12,293 bases of DNA from Bradymonadia bacterium (GCA_046290225.1 JBKAGE010000072.1:99764-112056); one strand, 5' to 3'; shown: positions 3,658 to 12,293, counted from the first letter of the stretch. Program-made: numbers and translations. The notes: generated by a model not told the origin, from the sequence alone.

Positions 3658-4611
3658 ATGACGACTCCTCGGCGAGGCACCGGCGCCGCGCCGGGCAAGG
3701 TCATCCTCTTCGGCGAGCACTCCGTGGTGCATGGCCAGCCGGCCATCGCCGCCGCCCTGGGCATCGGCCTCGGCGCCACCGCCACGGCGGGCGAGGGGCC
3801 ACCACAACTGAGCATCCCTGCATGGCAACAACAGATTCAGCTCAAAGCCAGCGGCGCCGGCTTCGACGCCCTGGACCGCGGCTTCGCCGCAGCGCTCGAA
3901 GCGGTGGGCCTCGATCCGACCCGTACAGCGGTGAAGGTCACCGTCGACGGTGAGCTGCCCCCGAGCGTGGGCCTCGGCAGCAGCGCCGCCTTCGCCGTGG
4001 CCCTGGTCCGGGCGCTCTCGAGCTTCGCTGGCGAACGCCTGAGCACTGATCGAGTCAGAGCTGCTGCAGAGCAGGTCGAGCGGGTGTTCCACGGCACCCC
4101 CAGCGGCCTCGACCACACCGTGGCCACCCTCGGCGGGTGTCTGCACTACCTGCGCACATCTGAAGGCCCACAATTCACCCCCATCACCCTGGCCCGGCCG
4201 ATCCCGGTGGTGGTCAGCTGGAGCCCACGGCGCGGGAGCACCCGCCAGGCAGTGTCCCACGTGGGCGCCCGGGCTGCCCGCTGGCCCGATCTGTACGGCC
4301 CGGTGCTCGAGGCCATGGGCCGTATCGCTCGAGAGGGCCAGGCAGCCCTCGAGGCTGGTGATCTGGCGCGCATCGGCGCCCTGTTCGACATCAACCATGG
4401 TCACCTGAACGCCCTCGGCGTGAGCAACGCCGACAACGAGCGCCTCGTGGCCATCGCCCGAGAGGCAGGGGCCCTCGGCGCCAAGCTCACAGGTGCAGGG
4501 CTCGGTGGCGCCGTCATCGCCGTCGCCCCGGAAGATCCCACACCGCTGCTCGAGGCTTTCGAGGCTGCCCGTTGTCCTGCCTTCGCCACCACAGTGGGCC
4601 GCGGCGATTGA
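3658..4611 (+). CDS. mvk: Mevalonate kinase (GHMP kinase family)
   Basis: ATG at 3658, 3 nt after the mvaA stop (TGAcccATG). GHMP motif 1 PGKVILFGEHSVVHG, motif 2 PPSVGLGSSAAFAVALVRAL and motif 3 KLTGAGLGGAVIAV are present. The 317 aa length is typical for bacterial MVK. Confidence 0.9.
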   Translation: MTTPRRGTGAAPGKVILFGEHSVVHGQPAIAAALGIGLGATATAGEGPPQLSIPAWQQQIQLKASGAGFDALDRGFAAALEAVGLDPTRTAVKVTVDGELPPSVGLGSSAAFAVALVRALSSFAGERLSTDRVRAAAEQVERVFHGTPSGLDHTVATLGGCLHYLRTSEGPQFTPITLARPIPVVVSWSPRRGSTRQAVSHVGARAARWPDLYGPVLEAMGRIAREGQAALEAGDLARIGALFDINHGHLNALGVSNADNERLVAIAREAGALGAKLTGAGLGGAVIAVAPEDPTPLLEAFEAARCPAFATTVGRGD

Positions 4612-5297
4612 TGAACCTCTGGCACCGGAGCCTCCTGGCGGCGCTCTGCCTTCTCTGCCCTGCCCTCACCTGGGCCGAGGGACCTTCAGAGAGCGCCCGC
4701 CATGCCACCACCCGGCTCTCCGGTGGGTACCTCAGCGGCCAATGGCGGCTGAGCGAGCGGCCCGAGCGCCTGCGGGCCGAGGGCCTCGTCTTCGGCGCCC
4801 GGCATCTCTGGGGTGACGCCGACGCACAGTGGCAACTCACCCTCGCCGGCCGTCGCTTGACGCTGACCCCCCAAGAAGACGGCGCTCGAGAGACATGGTG
4901 GGCCACATCCGCCCACGGTGGCTGGCGTGGCCGCTGGATCGCCTTTGAGTTGGGCGTACAGTGGTTCGAGGGTGCTGATGAAGCGTCGAACATTCTCCCC
5001 TCAGGGCGCCTGCGCCTTGGCCCCGAGTCGGCCTGGCTCGAAGTGTCGAGTGGAGACTGGGCTGCCCCCGTCCCCGTCCCCGGTCAGCATCGCGTGGGCG
5101 CGTCGGCGGCAGTGGGCCCCGGCCGTCTATGGGTGGGCGGCACCCTCGACGGACCAGATCCTGTCGCAGCGGTGCTCGCTGGCACCATCCCGCTCGGAGA
5201 GCGACTCCAGTTCGGGGTCTCGGCCTCGATGGCGCCGCGAGATGCAGATGACTTCACCCTCATCATGGCTCAACTCAGCGGAGGGCTGGACTGGTAG
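4611..5297 (+). CDS. Hypothetical secreted / outer-membrane-like Trp-rich protein, translationally coupled to mvk
   Basis: ATG at 4611-4613 overlaps the mvk TGA (4609-4611) as TGATG. N-terminus MNLWHRSLLAALCLLCPALTWA|EGP is a classical type I signal peptide with no lipobox. The 228 aa product is Trp/Gly/Arg-rich and ends ...QLSGGLDW, a C-terminal aromatic residue as in outer-membrane beta-barrels. The longer track ORF starting at 4572 would overlap mvk by 40 nt and is less likely. Confidence 0.6.
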   Translation: MNLWHRSLLAALCLLCPALTWAEGPSESARHATTRLSGGYLSGQWRLSERPERLRAEGLVFGARHLWGDADAQWQLTLAGRRLTLTPQEDGARETWWATSAHGGWRGRWIAFELGVQWFEGADEASNILPSGRLRLGPESAWLEVSSGDWAAPVPVPGQHRVGASAAVGPGRLWVGGTLDGPDPVAAVLAGTIPLGERLQFGVSASMAPRDADDFTLIMAQLSGGLDW

Positions 5298-5413: not shown

Positions 5414-6175
5414 ATGTTGAAAGCGGGTGTTTACGTCGACGCCGAGAACGTCGCACGCTGTGGGGGGTGGGGCATGCGTTTCGATATCTTGCGACAGTTC
5501 ATCGAGGCTCAAGGCGTACGGGTGCTCCGAGCCAATGTCTACCTCGCGGTGGATCAGGAGAGAGAAGAGAAGGACTGGCTCTACCGCGACAAGAAGCTGG
5601 CCTACCGGGCGGTCCTGAGGCGCCAGGGCTACAAAGTGGTCCCCAAATTCGTCAAACGCTACCGCAACGAAGAAGGCGAGCTGGTCACCAAGGCCAACGC
5701 AGATCTCGACCTCGCCGTCGACGCCCTGCTGCAAGCACAGCGCCTCGACTACATGATGCTGGTGAGCGGCGATGGCGACTTCGTACGGCTGGTGAACGCC
5801 CTGCAAAACTTCGGCTGTCGGGTGGACGCCCTCGGCTTCCACAACGTCTCCAGGGCCTTGCGCGACGCCGTGGACACCTACCACTCGGGCTTCTTCGTGC
5901 CCGAGCTGCTGCCCACCACGGATGATCGTCTGCGCGGCTTCATGCACAGCGTCGACGAAGAAAAATACTTCGGCTGGATCACCACCTGGGGCGACTTGAG
6001 CCCCGAGAGCGTGAGCACTGACATCTTCGTGCACGGAAACGACGTGGAGGGCGGCACCCTGAGCAATGGGCAGTTCGCCAACCTCAAGGTGCATCAGACG
6101 CCCATCGAGTTCACCCTCGACGTGAACGACGAGGGCCAGCCGCGGGCGGTGGACGTGAAGATTCTGCGGCCATGA
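5414..6175 (+). CDS. NYN-domain (LabA-like, PIN-fold RNase) protein with a C-terminal cold-shock/OB-fold-like domain
   Basis: ATG at 5414 with AAGGAA upstream. The N-terminal ~160 aa show the NYN/LabA signature: VYVDAENV near the N-terminus, then ADLDLAVDALLQA and MMLVSGDGDFVRLV, with conserved acidic residues of a PIN-like nuclease. The C-terminal ~70 aa (YFGWITTW..DIFVHGNDVEG..GQFANLKV..GQPRAVDVKIL) parallel the CspA pattern (KGFGFI..DVFVHFSAI..GQKVSF..GPAAGNVTSL). That pattern is an OB-fold nucleic-acid-binding domain. The long antisense ORF 5408-6337 is rejected. Confidence 0.78.
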   Translation: MLKAGVYVDAENVARCGGWGMRFDILRQFIEAQGVRVLRANVYLAVDQEREEKDWLYRDKKLAYRAVLRRQGYKVVPKFVKRYRNEEGELVTKANADLDLAVDALLQAQRLDYMMLVSGDGDFVRLVNALQNFGCRVDALGFHNVSRALRDAVDTYHSGFFVPELLPTTDDRLRGFMHSVDEEKYFGWITTWGDLSPESVSTDIFVHGNDVEGGTLSNGQFANLKVHQTPIEFTLDVNDEGQPRAVDVKILRP

Positions 6176-6177
6176 TG

Positions 6178-6328
6178 CTGTGAGCGGACGGCCGTGCCTT
6201 CGGCAACGCCTGTAGCGGACGACCCAGCAAAAGCTTTCGCTTCGCTGCGTCTGTAGCGGACGCCTCGCCTTCGGCGAGAGCTGTAGCGGACGCTCATTTG
6301 CCTCCGGCAAATTCCCTGTAGCTTTTTT
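6178..6328. repeat. Left arm of the hairpin-module repeat array: 5 copies of the CTGTAGCGGACG motif on the + strand
   Basis: Read directly from the sequence. Motif copies lie at 6178-6190 (CTGTGAGCGGACG), 6209-6221, 6251-6262, 6281-6292 and a truncated 6315-6322 (CTGTAGC) followed by T6 (6323-6328). Each inter-motif spacer holds its own short perfect hairpin: TGCC-TTC-GGCA (6195-6205), CAGC..GCTG around an AAAGCTTT palindrome (6225-6247), CTCGCC-TTC-GGCGAG (6264-6278), ATTTGCC-TCC-GGCAAAT (6296-6312). Confidence 0.85.
6296..6328 (+). terminator. Weak intrinsic-terminator-like element for the + strand NYN-CSD gene
   Basis: A 7-bp hairpin ATTTGCC(TCC)GGCAAAT at 6296-6312 is followed 10 nt later by TTTTTT (6323-6328). 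The hairpin-to-U-tract distance is longer than canonical, so this is weak. Confidence 0.3.
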
Positions 6329-6447
6329 GAAGATCACTTTGGGGGCGTGGGCTCATCTACCGCGAACGTTGTGACCCAATGACGCACCAGCTCCGGCGTA
6401 AGCCCCAACCTGGGCTGAGAAGCCCACCAAGTGCAGCATAACTCTCT

Positions 6448-6479
6448 AAAAAAGCTACAGCCCAGGCTGCCGGAGGCAG
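6448..6479 (-). terminator. Weak intrinsic-terminator-like element for the - strand flavoprotein/Fe-S membrane operon
   Basis: On the - strand a 5-bp hairpin CTGCC(TCC)GGCAG (6479-6467) is followed by ~13 nt and then TTTTTT (the complement of A6 at 6448-6453). It faces the + strand element across the 119-bp core. Confidence 0.3.
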
Positions 6480-6593
6480 ACTCGGCGTCCGCTACAGCTC
6501 TGCAAGGCGAAGCCGAAGCAGGCGTCCGCTACAGGCGGTGCGCAGCACGGCCGTCCGCTCCAGACGCAGCGAAGCTGGGTCGTCCGCTCAACA
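6448..6593. repeat. Right arm of the array: 5 copies of the same motif on the - strand, in mirror-image order
   Basis: The reverse-complement motif CGTCCGCTACAG lies at 6486-6497 and 6523-6534. Variants CGTCCGCTCCAG lie at 6552-6563 and CGTCCGCTCAACA at 6581-6593. The truncated copy A6-GCTACAG is at 6448-6460. Spacer hairpins read on the - strand are CTGCC-TCC-GGCAG (6467-6479), GGC-TTC-GCC / GC-TTCG-GC composite (6498-6521), GTGC-TGC-GCAC (6538-6548) and CAGC-TTC-GCTG (6567-6577). The outermost units of the two arms are near-identical (GAGCGGACGGCCGTGC, GAGCGGACGACCCAGC). Confidence 0.85.
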
Positions 6594-6595
6594 CC

Positions 6596-7972
6596 TCAGC
6601 TCTTGAGCGACTTGATGAGCTCCGACAGGGGGGCGTCGGCGCCGTCGAAACGATCGCTCACCTTACCGTTCTCCAGCTTGAGCACCCCTCGGGGGCACAC
6701 CGCAGCGCAAATGCCGCAGCCCACGCAGCTCGCCCGGACGATGTTCTCACCCTTCTGAGCGTATTTACGCACGTCGATGCCCATCTCGCAGTAGGTCGAG
6801 CAGTTACCACAGGAGATGCACTGCCCGCCGTTGGTGGTGATGCGGAACCGGCTGAAGAAGCGCTGACCCAGACCCAGAATCGCGGCCATCGGGCAGAAGA
6901 AGCGGCACCACACCCGGCTGCCCATCAGGGGGTAGAAGCCCACGCCGACGACGCCGGAAAGCATGGCGCCCACGAGGAAGCCGTAGGTCTTCGACGCCGC
7001 CTGGCTGAAGTCCCCAAGGACCTTGCCCTCAGTGTAACTGTTGATCCAGATCACCAGGGTGACCACGGTGATCGACACCAGCACTAGGTGAATCGCCCAG
7101 CGCTCGAAGCGCCACGCCTTGATGGACTTGTCGCTGAGATGCCGGAAGGGATCACCGGCGGTCTCGGCAAGACCACCGCAACCACACACCCACGAGCAGT
7201 ACCAGCGCTTACCGAAGTACCATGTGAGCAGTGGGGTCAGGATGAAGCTCGCGGCGATGCCCCAGAACACCATGAAGGTGCCCAGGCCACCAGGCTGCTC
7301 CATGAGCCACTTGATGTCGTTGGGGAACAAGTAGTTGTACTTCAGGGGCCAGAAGTAGGTGAAATAGAACTCGGGCTGACTCATCAGCTTCAGAAACTGC
7401 GGGATCAAGAACCCGAAGCCCAGCTGGAAGAACATCACCGAGAGCGTACGGAAGATTTGGTACTTGTTGTGGCGGTAGCGGAAGATCATCCGCACGCCCA
7501 TCAGCACCACCCCGAAGGTGTACAGGGTGCCATAGAGGAACCACTGATCAGCGCCCTTACCGTTGAGCAGCTTGCCCAGCGGCTCCACGAGGGCGATGGC
7601 CCCTGACAGCGAGCTGCCGTGCCAGTAGAGCATCACGTACAGCGTGGTGATGACTACCCCGAGGATGATGCCCACCGTACCGCGGGACTTGGTGCCGTCG
7701 GTCATGGTGCCGTTGTTCTTGATGCCCGGTACCGTTCCGCTGTAGGTGGCGACGATGTGACCGATGGTGCCCACAGTGATGGGCCCGAAGACCGAGAAGA
7801 AACCCACCCAGCCACCGAGACGCCAGCCAAAGAGAGCGGCGGCAAAGAGGGCGGCGCTCAGCAGAATCAGGCCGGTGCTGATTTTGCGGAGCTGTTGCAT
7901 TTGAGCGCTCACCTCGTGGGTGGCACCGTGACCGTCGACGAGAGAGATGCTTGCGTTGATCGGGTTGCTCAT
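6596..7972 (-). CDS. Polytopic membrane iron-sulfur protein of the NapH/MauN/NosR/CcoG (FixG) type, with a C-terminal 2x[4Fe-4S] ferredoxin domain
   Basis: The true start is ATG at 7972-7970 (MSNPINAS...). The ORF track's 95-aa N-terminal extension overlaps the upstream gene and is rejected. There are about 9-10 hydrophobic helices. Two CxxxCP-type membrane-proximal motifs, KRWYCSWVCGCGG and RVWCRFFCPMAAILG, match the R-x-(F/W)-C-R-x-x-C-P-x-G signature of NapH/MauN-family proteins. The C-terminus carries CISCGNCSTYCE and CVGCGICAAVCP (CxxCxxCxxxC[P/E]). The stop (TGA) is on the + strand as TCA at 6596-6598. The start overlaps the upstream flavoprotein stop as ATGA, which suggests translational coupling. 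Confidence 0.8.
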   Translation of the reverse strand: MSNPINASISLVDGHGATHEVSAQMQQLRKISTGLILLSAALFAAALFGWRLGGWVGFFSVFGPITVGTIGHIVATYSGTVPGIKNNGTMTDGTKSRGTVGIILGVVITTLYVMLYWHGSSLSGAIALVEPLGKLLNGKGADQWFLYGTLYTFGVVLMGVRMIFRYRHNKYQIFRTLSVMFFQLGFGFLIPQFLKLMSQPEFYFTYFWPLKYNYLFPNDIKWLMEQPGGLGTFMVFWGIAASFILTPLLTWYFGKRWYCSWVCGCGGLAETAGDPFRHLSDKSIKAWRFERWAIHLVLVSITVVTLVIWINSYTEGKVLGDFSQAASKTYGFLVGAMLSGVVGVGFYPLMGSRVWCRFFCPMAAILGLGQRFFSRFRITTNGGQCISCGNCSTYCEMGIDVRKYAQKGENIVRASCVGCGICAAVCPRGVLKLENGKVSDRFDGADAPLSELIKSLKS

Positions 7973-9252
7973 CGGACCTGCTCCATGAACGTGCCTACGA
8001 TGTTGCGCTCGTGCTTCCGGTAGAACTCGGGATCGAAGTTCGCATCCCGCATGTGGGCGAAGACGTACTCCGCATCTCTCTCCTCGGCGATCCACCGCTC
8101 GCAGACCCGGTGTCGATACCGGATGCCCATGGCGTTCACACCCTTGATGATCCCGTCTTGGAAGACCAGACGCATCGAATGCCGACGACTGGGGTGCTCC
8201 CAATACAGGTTCTTCTCGCGCTCGAGGTCCCGCTTCACCTGACCGTAGGTGTGCCACTCGAGATCGAGGAACTTGGCAGAGTTGAACCAGATGCCCTGCT
8301 CATAGGTGCGATCGATGCCGCTGATGACGTCGCCGGCCACCTGCCCCTGAGCCTTGCCGGTGTACCAGACCTGCTCGATGGTGTTCCGGGCGTCTCCGGG
8401 GTTCACCAGCTCGGCGCAGTCGCCCACGGCGTAGACCCCTTCGACCTGCGTCTGGAGCTTCCAGTCCACCAGGATCCCACGACCGGTGGGGATGCCTGAG
8501 CCTTCGAGTGCGGACAGGTTGGGCCGTACACCCGCGGTGAGGCCCACGAACTCGCAGTCGATGCGCTCGCCGTCTTTGGTCATCACGCCGCAGACGCGCC
8601 CATGGCCATCATCCAGGATCTCGGCGAGCTCGGTCTCGAGACGCAGATCGATGTGCTGCTCGTAGATGTGGTGGTTCACCAGGGCCGACTCTTCGGCGGG
8701 GAGCACGTTGCTCCAGTACGACTTCTCACGGGCGAGGATGCTCACGTGCTTGCCGCGTGCATGGAGCATCTCGGCGAGCTCGATGCCGATGAGGCCCCCA
8801 CCGACGATGACCCCGCGCTTGATGCGATGGCTGTTGGCCTCGAGGCTGTAGAGATCCTGCAGGCTGTACATGCCGTGCACGCCTTCGAGATCCTGACCGG
8901 GCCAGCCGAACTTGTTGGGCTGGCTGCCCACGGCGAGCACCAGCTTGTCGTAGGCGATCGAGGTGCGGGTGTCGTTGACGCTGTTGAGCGTCAGCCGGCG
9001 GTTCTCGGTGTCGATGTGGGTGACCCAGCCCTGCACCCGCTCGATGCGGTTGAGATCCCATACATGGTTCTCGTACGGGCGGGTCTGGGCCTCGGTCATG
9101 TGCCCCATGTAGATGTACATGAGGGCTGGTCGCGAGAAGAAGTACTCCGACTCTCCGGAGATCAGCGAGATGCGCCAGTCAGGATGGTTTTTGCGTATGC
9201 GAAACGCTGTGGTCACCCCTGAGATGCCGTTGCCGATGATCGCGATGTGCAT
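7969..9252 (-). CDS. FAD/NAD(P)H-dependent oxidoreductase of the two-dinucleotide-binding-domain fold (ferredoxin-reductase / pyridine nucleotide-disulfide oxidoreductase family)
   Basis: Start chosen at the second Met (ATG 9252-9250; MHIAIIGNGISGV = FAD GxGxxG) because AAGGAAGGGAG lies 4-8 nt upstream. The track ORF begins 11 codons earlier at 9285. The NAD(P) Rossmann motif KRGVIVGGGLIGIELAE and the second FAD motif GVYAVGDCA are present. No redox-active CxxxxC or single active-site Cys appears near the N-terminus, which makes a ferredoxin/rubredoxin-reductase-like enzyme more likely than a disulfide reductase. The stop TGA is TCA at 7969-7971 on the + strand. Confidence 0.85.
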   Translation of the reverse strand: MHIAIIGNGISGVTTAFRIRKNHPDWRISLISGESEYFFSRPALMYIYMGHMTEAQTRPYENHVWDLNRIERVQGWVTHIDTENRRLTLNSVNDTRTSIAYDKLVLAVGSQPNKFGWPGQDLEGVHGMYSLQDLYSLEANSHRIKRGVIVGGGLIGIELAEMLHARGKHVSILAREKSYWSNVLPAEESALVNHHIYEQHIDLRLETELAEILDDGHGRVCGVMTKDGERIDCEFVGLTAGVRPNLSALEGSGIPTGRGILVDWKLQTQVEGVYAVGDCAELVNPGDARNTIEQVWYTGKAQGQVAGDVISGIDRTYEQGIWFNSAKFLDLEWHTYGQVKRDLEREKNLYWEHPSRRHSMRLVFQDGIIKGVNAMGIRYRHRVCERWIAEERDAEYVFAHMRDANFDPEFYRKHERNIVGTFMEQVR

Positions 9253-10596: not shown

Positions 10597-11567
10597 GTCT
10601 CGACCTGCGCCCCCGGACCAGGCGCGGCGACGAGCACTTCGCTCACGCCAGGTACGGCCTTCAGGGTGCTGGCGATGTGCTCGGCATCCTCGGCAGCGCA
10701 CAACACCTTGACGTGGGGGCCTGCGTCCATCGTGTACCAGGCGCTCACGCCCTGCTCACGCAGCTGGTGCACCTGCTCCATGGCGGCGAGGGTGGCGGAG
10801 CGCCAATAGATGAGCGGTGGACGCCCCGCCATCATGCAGGCGTGCATCTTGAGGGTGGAGTGCTCCATCATCTCACCAAGCGTGTCCAAATCTCGCGCGT
10901 TGATGGCAGCCTCGGCGGCCTGCATGTCGGCCTCGTGGCTGCTCACCCAGGAGGCGAAGTAGGGACTGGTGCGGGCGGAGCTCTCCATGCCGACGCGAGA
11001 GCTGATTTTCTTGGGGCCCTTCTCGGTGAGGCAGAGCACCATGCGCAGCGGCCATGCCTCAGGCGTGGCAATCTGACGAATCTGTCCTTCGACCTTGTCG
11101 AGCACGACGAACCCGCCGAGCAATGATCTTGGCGCCGAGCCGGATCCGATCCGTGTGAGCTCGGCCTTGTGAGGATCTTCAGGGTCGAGGCCGGCAGCGG
11201 CCCAGGCAGCTGCGACGAGAGCAGCGAACCCACTGGCGCTGCTGGCGAGGCCCGCTGCGGTGGGTACGGTGTTCTCGCTGTTGACCCGAGCATGGGGCAA
11301 CGGGATGCCATGTGATCCAGCATGCTGTCGCACGGCGTCGAGAATGGGCTGTACCCGCCCGGCGTCGGCCTCGACGCCATTGAGCTGGAACTGGTGGTGG
11401 CTCAATGCGCTGTCGAAGATCACCTCGGTGCGGGTGCCGGGGGCGTCGAGGGTGAGCGACAGGCTACTGACTGCGGGCAGGTTGAGCTCGGCGTCTCGTT
11501 TGCCCCAGTACTTGATCAGGGCGACGTTGATGCCGGCCTGGGCGATGGCTCGGTGAGGCTGCTGCAT
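10590..11567 (-). CDS. mvaD: Diphosphomevalonate decarboxylase
   Basis: True start is ATG 11567-11565 (MQQPHRAIAQAGINVALIKYWGKRD). This sits 13 residues before the universally conserved NIALIKYWGKRD block, as in characterised MVDs. GHMP motif VPTAAGLASSASGFAALVAAA and RIGSGSAPRSL are present, and the C-terminal YTMDAGPHVKVL block matches MVD. The 43-aa N-terminal extension in the track ORF (PVPVPVPVPV..., Pro-rich) is read-through of the upstream microsatellite and is rejected. No SD-like motif lies upstream of this start. Confidence 0.88.
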   Translation of the reverse strand: MQQPHRAIAQAGINVALIKYWGKRDAELNLPAVSSLSLTLDAPGTRTEVIFDSALSHHQFQLNGVEADAGRVQPILDAVRQHAGSHGIPLPHARVNSENTVPTAAGLASSASGFAALVAAAWAAAGLDPEDPHKAELTRIGSGSAPRSLLGGFVVLDKVEGQIRQIATPEAWPLRMVLCLTEKGPKKISSRVGMESSARTSPYFASWVSSHEADMQAAEAAINARDLDTLGEMMEHSTLKMHACMMAGRPPLIYWRSATLAAMEQVHQLREQGVSAWYTMDAGPHVKVLCAAEDAEHIASTLKAVPGVSEVLVAAPGPGAQVETC

Positions 11568-11666: not shown

Positions 11667-11696
11667 GGGCACGGGCACGGGCACGGGCACGGGCAC
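11667..11696. repeat. (GGGCAC)5 perfect hexanucleotide tandem repeat, about 100 bp upstream of the mvaD start
   Basis: Read directly from the sequence: gggcac x5 at 11667-11696. It is preceded by a G-run-rich tract at 11581-11645 (GGGGG, GGG, GGGGG, GGG... on the + strand, so C-rich in the mvaD leader). Confidence 0.9.
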
Positions 11697-11984: not shown

Positions 11985-12293
11985 CCGGCGCTCCGCGGGG
12001 CACGTGCATATGTGGGTTATGGCTTTGTTGGGTTGGTGGGTTGGGGCTTTTTCACTCCATTCAGTGATGACTCTATAGATGATGAATTTGCCATACTTTT
12101 GGTGAGCAGCCCCTCTTGCGTGGGCTGATACACAGTGGATGTCCCTTCTCCTGTCACCTTGTAAGTCGGAGAAGTGTTGTGCATCCGCCCTGGTAGGGTA
12201 GGCGGGTCGCGGCGTAGTACCGCGTTGCCCGCCCCCCATCGCACCGGACGTGCGGATCTCCCGCATCCGGCGCTCCTGCATCAGTCGCCATCG

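Follow-up and report, generated by a model that had tools for sequence, protein, structure and literature searches.

A mirror-symmetric array of triloop hairpins between convergent operons in an uncultured member of the Bradymonadia and its counterpart in a close relative

Repetitive extragenic palindromes (REPs) lie mostly downstream of open reading frames (ORFs) and between convergent genes, have loops of 2-3 nt and occur in clusters (PMC3733652). A dual role in termination and mRNA stabilisation is documented for REPs and bacterial interspersed mosaic elements (BIMEs), and one REP cluster has been shown to act both as a terminator and as a stabiliser of the upstream mRNA (bioRxiv 10.64898/2026.03.23.713779). 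Here we describe a hairpin array, a 423-bp imperfect palindrome that fills the gap where two operons converge in an uncultured bacterium, assigned by protein matches to the Bradymonadia. The array occupies positions 6176-6598 of the window, which is the whole stretch of DNA analysed (12,293 nucleotides; GCA_046290225.1, JBKAGE010000072.1:99764-112056). It begins directly after the stop codon (TGA, 6173-6175) of a NYN nuclease gene (5414-6175, plus strand), and its last motif ends at 6592/6593, 2-3 nt from the stop codon (6596-6598) of a convergent gene for a NapH-like membrane polyferredoxin of 458 aa (6596-7972, minus strand; hereafter the Fe-S gene).

The array resembles REP/BIME elements, such as REP325 of E. 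coli and other GTAG-/CGTC-tagged forms, in its short GC-rich hairpins with loops of 2-3 nt, in its position after ORFs and between convergent genes, in its complementary stem variants, and in having units in both orientations that together form a larger hairpin. REP/BIME elements, however, have a shared palindrome and tens to hundreds of dispersed copies, whereas the stems of the array all differ, its unpaired linker is conserved and its units run head to tail within each arm. No other copy was found in the approximately 57 kb scanned, which comprise 16.9 kb of the source genome (4.6 kb of it from Logan contigs) and 40.2 kb of the genome of a close relative (from a 139-kb scaffold found via cluster members). 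Tentatively, and with somewhat less than even confidence, we read the array as a two-way 3'-end module of BIME-like kind, private to one Bradymonadia lineage and inherited vertically, whose arms would each form the 3' tail of one operon.

Anatomy and loop class of the array

Two mirrored arms flank a core of about 119 bp, and each arm consists of four linker-plus-spacer units followed by a truncated linker, CTGTAGC, and a run of six T (T6). Folded on either strand, the entire array gives a single long hairpin (z = -10.5 and -10.8), which answers the proposal of an earlier note on this DNA, made from the sequence alone, that 6176-6598 be folded in both orientations. In the left arm (6176-6328, plus strand), the outer linker is the variant CTGTGAGCGGACG with a 1-nt insertion (6178-6190), exact copies of the 12-mer CTGTAGCGGACG stand at 6210-6221, 6251-6262 and 6281-6292, and the truncated linker (6316-6322) leads into T6 at 6323-6328. 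The right arm (6448-6595, minus strand) carries the outer linker variant GTTGAGCGGACG (6581-6592), the linker CTGGAGCGGACG with one mismatch (6552-6563), exact CTGTAGCGGACG linkers at 6523-6534 and 6486-6497, and the truncated linker (6454-6460) followed by T6, which is A6 on the plus strand (6448-6453). The mirrored array of the earlier note agrees with the sequence and with these motif positions. Its ten motifs are more exactly five exact copies, one copy with one mismatch, two degenerate outer copies and two half copies, and the spacing of 28-39 that it gave is 29-41 when measured start to start (31, 41, 30 and 35 in the left arm; 29, 29, 37 and 37 in the right arm).

Five exact copies of CTGTAGCGGACG are present in the array and none elsewhere in the 16.9 kb of source-genome sequence. 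With up to two mismatches allowed, the window contains eight matches (mean 1.4 and maximum 6 in 200 shuffles), and the top six matches of the window all fall within the array. If the units are numbered from L1 to L4 and from R1 to R4 towards the core, the arms prove to be inverted, collinear copies, apart from an exchange between the two outer units (L1~R2, L2~R1, L3~R3, L4~R4). The arms had been called shuffled, which is correct for these two outer units only.

A perfect triloop hairpin of 4-7 bp is found in six of the eight spacers. On the plus strand these are L1, TGCC-TTC-GGCA (6195-6205), which has two extra outer pairs beyond a 2x2 mismatch, L3, CTCGCC-TTC-GGCGAG (6264-6278), and L4, ATTTGCC-TCC-GGCAAAT (6296-6312). 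On the minus strand they are R4, CTGCC-TCC-GGCAG (6467-6479; C-GGA-G on the plus strand), R2, GTGC-TGC-GCAC (6538-6548), and R1, CAGC-TTC-GCTG (6567-6577). The remaining two hairpins are composite. L2 (6222-6250, plus strand), AC.CAGC...GCTG.GT, has the same stem as its mirror unit R1, and its loop carries a 12-nt insertion relative to R1 (AAAAGCTTTCGC, 6229-6240) that forms a nested AAGC-TTTC-GCTT hairpin; R3 (6498-6522, minus strand), CTGC..GGC-TTC-GCC..GCAG, combines a 4-bp outer stem with the 3-bp inner hairpin GGC-TTC-GCC. R3 resembles an enlarged L3, much as L2 enlarges R1, and the hairpins of the array seem to grow by such loop insertion (L2, R3). The claim that every spacer holds a perfect hairpin of its own was thus slightly overstated, also with respect to L2 and R1, which have a common stem, and to L4 and R4, which have a common apex.

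Most spacers pair nearly end to end. Single 4-bp hairpins are frequent by chance (about 6 per kb in this GC-rich DNA), and the evidence for the hairpins is therefore collective: the minimum free energies of the eight spacers sum to -59.6 kcal/mol, while 1000 shuffles had a mean of -27.6 and a best value of -50.0 (p<0.001). The hairpins as a set are non-random.

The differences between mirror units preserve pairing. L4 and R4 differ by two both-sided changes, the outer stem of L3 and R3 by at least one (in a loop-anchored comparison), and L1 and R2 have a common 5' half and a rewritten 3' half that pairs in a different register. In the comparisons made, stem changes were both-sided and never one-sided. 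The spacers keep structure over sequence in the source as well as in the relative described below, as the earlier note had argued for the source. Its plan of building a covariance model from the units could not be carried through, since a MAFFT alignment of the eight units was structurally inconsistent; explicit hairpin scans replaced the model.

All six perfect hairpins have a C-G closing pair around a TNC loop when read in the sense of the adjacent operon, and the opposite (template) strand reads C-GNA-G. Viewed on the plus strand, the partition is strict, with TNC loops throughout the left arm and GNA loops throughout the right arm, and the array is mirror-symmetric with respect to the directions of transcription. 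Of the 97 background triloop hairpins across 16.5 kb of source-genome sequence, just 5 belong to the class C-TNC-G/C-GNA-G (Fisher p = 3e-7). The earlier note had missed this single, strand-partitioned loop class, and also that the region is one imperfect palindrome.

The non-repetitive core (6329-6447; no strand assigned), which the inner inverted repeat CTGTAGCTTTTTTGAAGA / TCTCTAAAAAAGCTACAG closes, harbours the hairpin TGGGCT-GAGA-AGCCCA (6411-6426). Its folding is stronger than expected (z = -3.9 on the plus strand and -3.1 on the minus strand). No notable ORF, promoter-like site or Rfam match was found in the core, and a small ORF or small RNA within it was rejected for these reasons.

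The orthologous array in a close relative

The protein collection contains only one close lineage, whose NYN and Fe-S proteins are 85% and 80% identical to those of the source. Its bin includes ENA ERZ23498654 scaffold_119; the source assembly holds the protein MFN3201524.1, and the source samples are SRR22269038 and SRR15371425. The genes of the relative stand in the same order as those of the source, with 78% DNA identity for the genes on either side of the gap. In the relative, the corresponding stop codons are separated by a gap of 400 bp that forms a large imperfect palindrome (foldback; z = -13). The other convergent gaps of the relative measure 10-40 nt. The earlier note had raised the possibility that relatives might keep the flanking genes and lack the array; this relative retains a hairpin foldback between them.

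The outer hairpin of the relative's array, GGCGGAcagGTCGCCC-TTC/TCC-GGGCGACtcaTCCGCC, begins 0-3 nt from each stop codon and has a stem of 6+7-8 bp (GGCGGA..GTCGCCC-TTC/TCC-GGGCGAC..TCCGCC). The loop of the right outer hairpin is TTC in one strain and TCC in another. Further hairpins are GACCCC-GTT-GGGGTC, CAGCCC-TTT-GGGCTG and GGCC-TTC-GGCC in the left arm, and CAGCC-TGC-GGCTG, GCGGC-TGC-GCCGC and GGGGC-TGC-GCCCC in the right arm. Six of the eight hairpins belong to the class C-TNC-G/C-GNA-G and are again partitioned by arm (background 11/269, p = 5e-7); two hairpins carry GTT and TTT loops instead. The linkers are nearly identical from arm to arm (GCCTAAGGGGGAGACGG, 17/17; TTGGCNCCAGGGGCC, 14/15), and the stems between them have been replaced with pairing kept.

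At the sequence level, the two arrays have little in common. Both CTGTAGCGGACG and the GTAG linker are absent from the relative's array, in which the sequence GGGGCCT recurs after hairpins, and a comparison of the two arrays revealed no significant similarity (local score 22, shuffle mean 21). Only GCGGAC and the stop-adjacent hairpin GCC(C)-TTC-GG(G)C look common to both. From this comparison it follows that architecture, loop class and position are conserved at the orthologous site and the sequence is not. The earlier note had taken the 12-mer for the conserved essence of the array, a view that does not survive a relative with other linkers (including the recurring GGGGCCT) and an array that cannot be aligned to that of the source.

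The loop class brings in a serious rival explanation, although we consider it unlikely: the array may act at the DNA level, through C-GNA-G mini-hairpins in single-stranded or supercoiled DNA, each beside a conserved linker, with the minus strand carrying those of the left arm and the plus strand those of the right arm. These would be strand-specific signals for an enzyme that reads hairpins in single-stranded DNA (primase-type as at single-strand initiation (ssi) signals, HUH/RAYT-type, gyrase or a junction-binding protein) or, alternatively, would absorb torsional stress between the convergent operons. The d(C-GNA-G) motif is an 'extraordinarily stable' DNA mini-hairpin known from the phage G4 origin, RSF1010 ssiA and the early promoters of phage N4, and that of ssiA is recognised by the primase RepB' (PMC13037366). 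Its stability depends on closure by a C-G pair (PMC3201870). Closing pair and loop class are the same in 6/6 perfect hairpins of the arms in the window and in 6/8 hairpins of the relative's array, which makes 12 hairpins over two species against a background of 4-5%, strictly partitioned by arm. Clusters of at least three such hairpins were present only in the two arrays among approximately 410 kb of fetched loci. The two signals ssiA and ssiB of RSF1010 lie on opposite strands, which resembles the strand partition of the array, and the whole locus is a palindrome.

Signals of the ssi and N4 type, however, are single hairpins in replicons or phage promoters that have a cognate primase or polymerase, whereas the array has 4+4 hairpins and is chromosomal, lies between metabolic operons and has no such genes nearby. 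No replication, transposition or primase genes were found near the array; in both species it is flanked by mevalonate-pathway, redox and glycolysis genes, and this site between housekeeping operons is stable across species. The GTT and TTT loops of the relative do not fit a signal of the GNA type. When every hairpin is folded with nearest-neighbour energies, as RNA and as DNA and on either strand, the strands do not separate energetically, because the models contain no GNA bonus. Convergent transcription, moreover, generates positive supercoiling, which opposes the extrusion of hairpins.

The outermost 39 nt of the relative's array form an inverted repeat with 97% identity between the arms. 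In short-read assemblies of at least six samples (L008, L025, L026, L034-L037, L042), contigs end inside the first unit of the relative's array, and we attribute these breaks to this repeat. Breaks in Logan contigs were accordingly rejected as evidence for dispersal; in the source sample, the right-hand contig already ends 220 nt short of the array. High identity between the outer arms suggests ongoing homogenisation, and together with the assembly breaks it is what one might expect if the array were a selfish or neutral relic, namely an old foldback or insertion resembling a MITE (miniature inverted-repeat transposable element), or an inverted duplication, that was present in the common ancestor, persists by gene conversion between its arms and has no function beyond that of any terminator it replaced. 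Long imperfect terminal inverted repeats, short subterminal direct repeats, a unique core and a length of about 400 bp are also features of foldback and MITE-type (non-autonomous) transposons. The junctions of the array, GATGC|TGT... and ...ACA|CCTCA, show no target-site duplication, though, and neither a second copy nor a transposase was found in the regions read, nor any match in plasmid and phage collections. The orthologous position has been kept across species despite the turnover of sequence, and a neutral element would not retain pairing or a single loop class beyond alignable divergence. We therefore regard such a relic as quite improbable.

The relative's array has no T-run. Canonical terminators with A-tract, hairpin and T-tract do exist elsewhere in this lineage (L033, 16448-16492; L038, about 12560-12640). 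The latter is a canonical terminator duplicated in tandem after secG of the relative, with two copies of GAGCGCACGGAAYAAAAAAGCCCACCG(A)GGTGGTGGGCT. Next to it, on the other strand, is a putative tRNA gene.

Flanking genes and searches for related elements

Both flanking genes terminate blocks that contain mevalonate-pathway genes. The NYN gene is the last of a plus-strand mevalonate-pathway block and encodes a NYN nuclease domain (Pfam E=2e-26) and a weak C-terminal cold-shock domain (CSD). The CSD scores below the Pfam cut-off (E=6.6e-4) yet matches profile positions 2-64 of 66, and PF00313 is present in homologues of the protein. The Fe-S gene closes a minus-strand operon (MDD, PMK, Pyr_redox_2, Fe-S). 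It starts with the ATG at 7972, not at 8257, and overlaps the stop codon of the preceding Pyr_redox_2 gene.

With the NYN-CSD gene as the immediate neighbour of the array in both species, this nuclease is the obvious candidate for a sequence-specific protein that might use the array RNA as a scaffold or substrate. The hairpins would then present the single-stranded 12-nt linkers, the CSD would bind them, and the 3' untranslated regions would be cleaved or sequestered, which would amount to autoregulation of the NYN-CSD mRNA and co-regulation of the convergent operon. A linker that is identical in 12/12 positions in five copies beside variable stems would suit such a protein, and diverse stems would avoid misfolding between units. 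We nevertheless hold this explanation to be highly doubtful: the linker is not conserved in the relative despite a NYN-CSD protein that is 85% identical, the mirrored arm serves a different operon, and NYN-CSD homologues elsewhere (L009-L011) are followed by a gap of 25 nt and no array. The connection to the NYN-CSD protein drawn in the earlier note is therefore positional only. Genes related more distantly to the Fe-S gene (64-67% identity) likewise stand among different neighbours and lack an array.

One of the NYN-CSD homologues (59% identity; L009, 1-20765) is located in an island that appears to be mobile or defensive and also carries LmuB_C, a relaxase, PD-(D/E)XK, radical SAM and a tyrosine integrase, so the NYN-CSD family occurs independently of the mevalonate locus. 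The window contains an unannotated ORF (4611-5297), upstream of the NYN gene, with a signal peptide and no Pfam or NCBIfam match. Its identity to the counterpart in the relative (L033, 8959-9570) is 37%, compared with 80-85% for the neighbouring genes. As a partner protein of the array it was rejected, given its signal peptide and membrane or secreted look.

Beside CTGTAGCGGACG, the arrays have GGCGGACAGGTCGCCC and GGGGCCT as unit sequences. No further units were found in either genome, as far as it was covered, and Rfam searches of 6100-6680 returned best matches of 13-18 bits against cut-offs of 32-53, with no family at its gathering score. Within this scope, nothing indicates a generic dispersed family, and the array corresponds to no described one; the earlier note had likewise not recognised it as a described element.

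In 185,579 species genomes, metagenomes and viral contigs, a search for two exact 12-mers 14-42 nt apart yielded 6 genome, 12 metagenome and 1 viral match. By rough estimate, this number is of the order expected by chance for any 12-mer. As relatives of the array the matches were rejected, being coding repeats or unrelated tandem repeats, including a Haliangium array of 14 repeats of 42 nt. Some unrelated bacteria have intergenic tandem arrays with a period of 42-50 nt in which CTGTAGCGGACG stands beside GC palindromes (L003, 7087-7671, in a Haliangium metagenome-assembled genome; L013, 10320-10880; L014, 1-150; L021, 4720-4900; L005, 4990-5150), and several of these begin just past a stop codon. 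We judged that they share the 12-mer by chance, having been selected by the search pattern.

These searches also bear on whether the array is a member of an ordinary genome-wide REP family, GTAG-tagged and mobilised by RAYT, that appears unique because little of the genome has been read. The linker does contain GTAG, and CGTC on the other strand, and short loops, sites between convergent genes, clusters and complementary stem variants are typical of REPs (PMC3733652). Among the explanations weighed here, however, this one is the least probable. The stems vary from unit to unit and form no single palindrome; the REP tag GTAG/CGTC sits at the foot of the stem, and head-to-tail runs are rare among REP families (PMC3733652), whereas in the array 6-10 nt separate GTAG from the stem downstream of it, and the relative's array lacks the tag. 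No RAYT/Y1 transposase gene and no other copy of the array were found in the 57 kb read, and the tandem 12-mer search of the species genomes and the metagenome collection returned nothing comparable.

The comparison with an inverse CRISPR array that the earlier note had offered has no mechanistic support. CRISPR and ToxI arrays share with the present array the regular alternation of short repeats and variable segments, and ToxI also has a neighbouring endoribonuclease. CRISPR arrays, however, have repeats of approximately 23-55 nt, unique non-palindromic spacers, one orientation and usually cas genes, whereas the array has units of 29-41 nt, an unstructured 12-nt repeat, palindromic spacers of 17-29 nt and mirrored halves, and no cas domains are encoded in the window. 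In ToxI, nearly identical repeats stand in tandem immediately upstream of the gene for the endoribonuclease; the array lies downstream of the nuclease gene, and its units are dissimilar and mirrored.

Several other candidates were rejected. The GC skew across 16.9 kb tracks gene orientation without a switch at the array, and a replication terminus or origin was rejected on this ground. Neither dif, DnaA-box or integrase attachment-site sequences nor an integrase gene are present nearby, and a retron was rejected for lack of an adjacent reverse transcriptase.

Two further features of the window lie apart from the array. The one Rfam match of the window that reaches its gathering score is to RF00029 (49.1 bits, cut-off 40): positions 12193-12275 (minus strand) correspond to domains V/VI at the 3' end of a group II intron, and the remainder of the intron and its ORF would fall past the right end of the window. 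The diphosphomevalonate decarboxylase gene probably starts at the ATG at 11567, and a GTGCCC repeat run (11672-11696; Val-Pro x5 in frame) is located upstream of this start.

A possible two-way 3'-end module

If the array is a two-way 3'-end module, each arm would be transcribed as the 3' tail of the incoming operon, and its RNA would fold into a string of short GC-rich triloop hairpins with single-stranded linkers between them. Such strings could stop or slow read-through from both sides and block 3' exonucleases, and both operons would be insulated from each other, as is the case with the REP/BIME clusters of E. coli. The CTGTAGCGGACG linker may represent a lineage-specific amplification of one unit, and between the arms the linkers would stay similar while the stems drift via compensatory change. 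We infer transcription of the array, action of the hairpins in RNA and a function in termination, stabilisation or insulation from the arrangement of the locus: the array is where each operon ends, the gap holds no further terminator candidate, and in both arms the linkers and the pyrimidine-rich loops are on the sense strand of the incoming operon. Loop class, kept pairing, mirror symmetry and persistence of the site together argue for selection on a single-stranded structure, as opposed to chance or a recent insertion.

The array shares its position, its symmetry and GC hairpins that can serve from either side with bidirectional intrinsic terminators, and the core of the window is flanked by T6 and A6. 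A normal bidirectional terminator, however, is one hairpin of 30-50 bp with A- and T-tracts, whereas the array comprises 8-10 hairpins over 400 bp, mostly without U-tracts, and has conserved linkers. Both arms of the window end in CTGTAGC and T6, and that on the minus strand scores as terminator-like. The terminator consensus has one match on the minus strand (6470-6457 plus T6) and none on the plus strand, and both numbers are within shuffle expectation.

Several observations speak against a 3'-end module. Taken alone, neither arm exceeds dinucleotide shuffles in stability (z = -1.4 and -0.65 for the window, and z = -1.8 for the right arm of the relative). The relative has no U-tracts, and that of the left arm of the window is poorly placed, 10 nt past the hairpin. 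Canonical terminators exist in the lineage, and a hairpin array is therefore not the usual local solution. To our knowledge, UNC triloops are not a stable class of RNA loops; their complement C-GNA-G is a known extra-stable mini-hairpin of DNA, which points to DNA as the acting form. A pure hairpin function leaves unexplained why linkers are conserved over stems, and why the loops are of a class that is special for DNA and not for RNA.

It is also conceivable, though in our view very improbable, that the two arrays are an undescribed element: a locus-bound, mirror-symmetric string of C-GNA-G/C-UNC-G mini-hairpins with sequence-specific unpaired linkers and with stems that stay paired and are free, or perhaps under pressure, to diversify, read by a strand-specific factor that co-evolves with the linker between species. 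The reader would be an enzyme acting on hairpins in single-stranded DNA, or an RNA-binding nuclease such as NYN-CSD. More generally, there is a non-trivial but small chance that the array, a REP/BIME-like intergenic palindromic element matching no described family, is of its own kind.

The array is unusual in that linkers are conserved and stems replaced, in that it employs one loop class, which is that of the most stable DNA mini-hairpin, with strict strand partition, and in that its architecture outlasts its sequence. It is relevant to the evolution of nucleic-acid structure and to enzymes that read hairpins in single-stranded DNA or RNA, and in practical terms it breaks short-read assemblies at the locus. 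If the array is indeed a two-way 3'-end module, convergent operons of Bradymonadia, a little-studied predatory lineage, would here be separated by a fast-evolving string of hairpins instead of a single terminator, and REP/BIME-like 3'-end regulators may exist as private single-locus structures outside the Proteobacteria.

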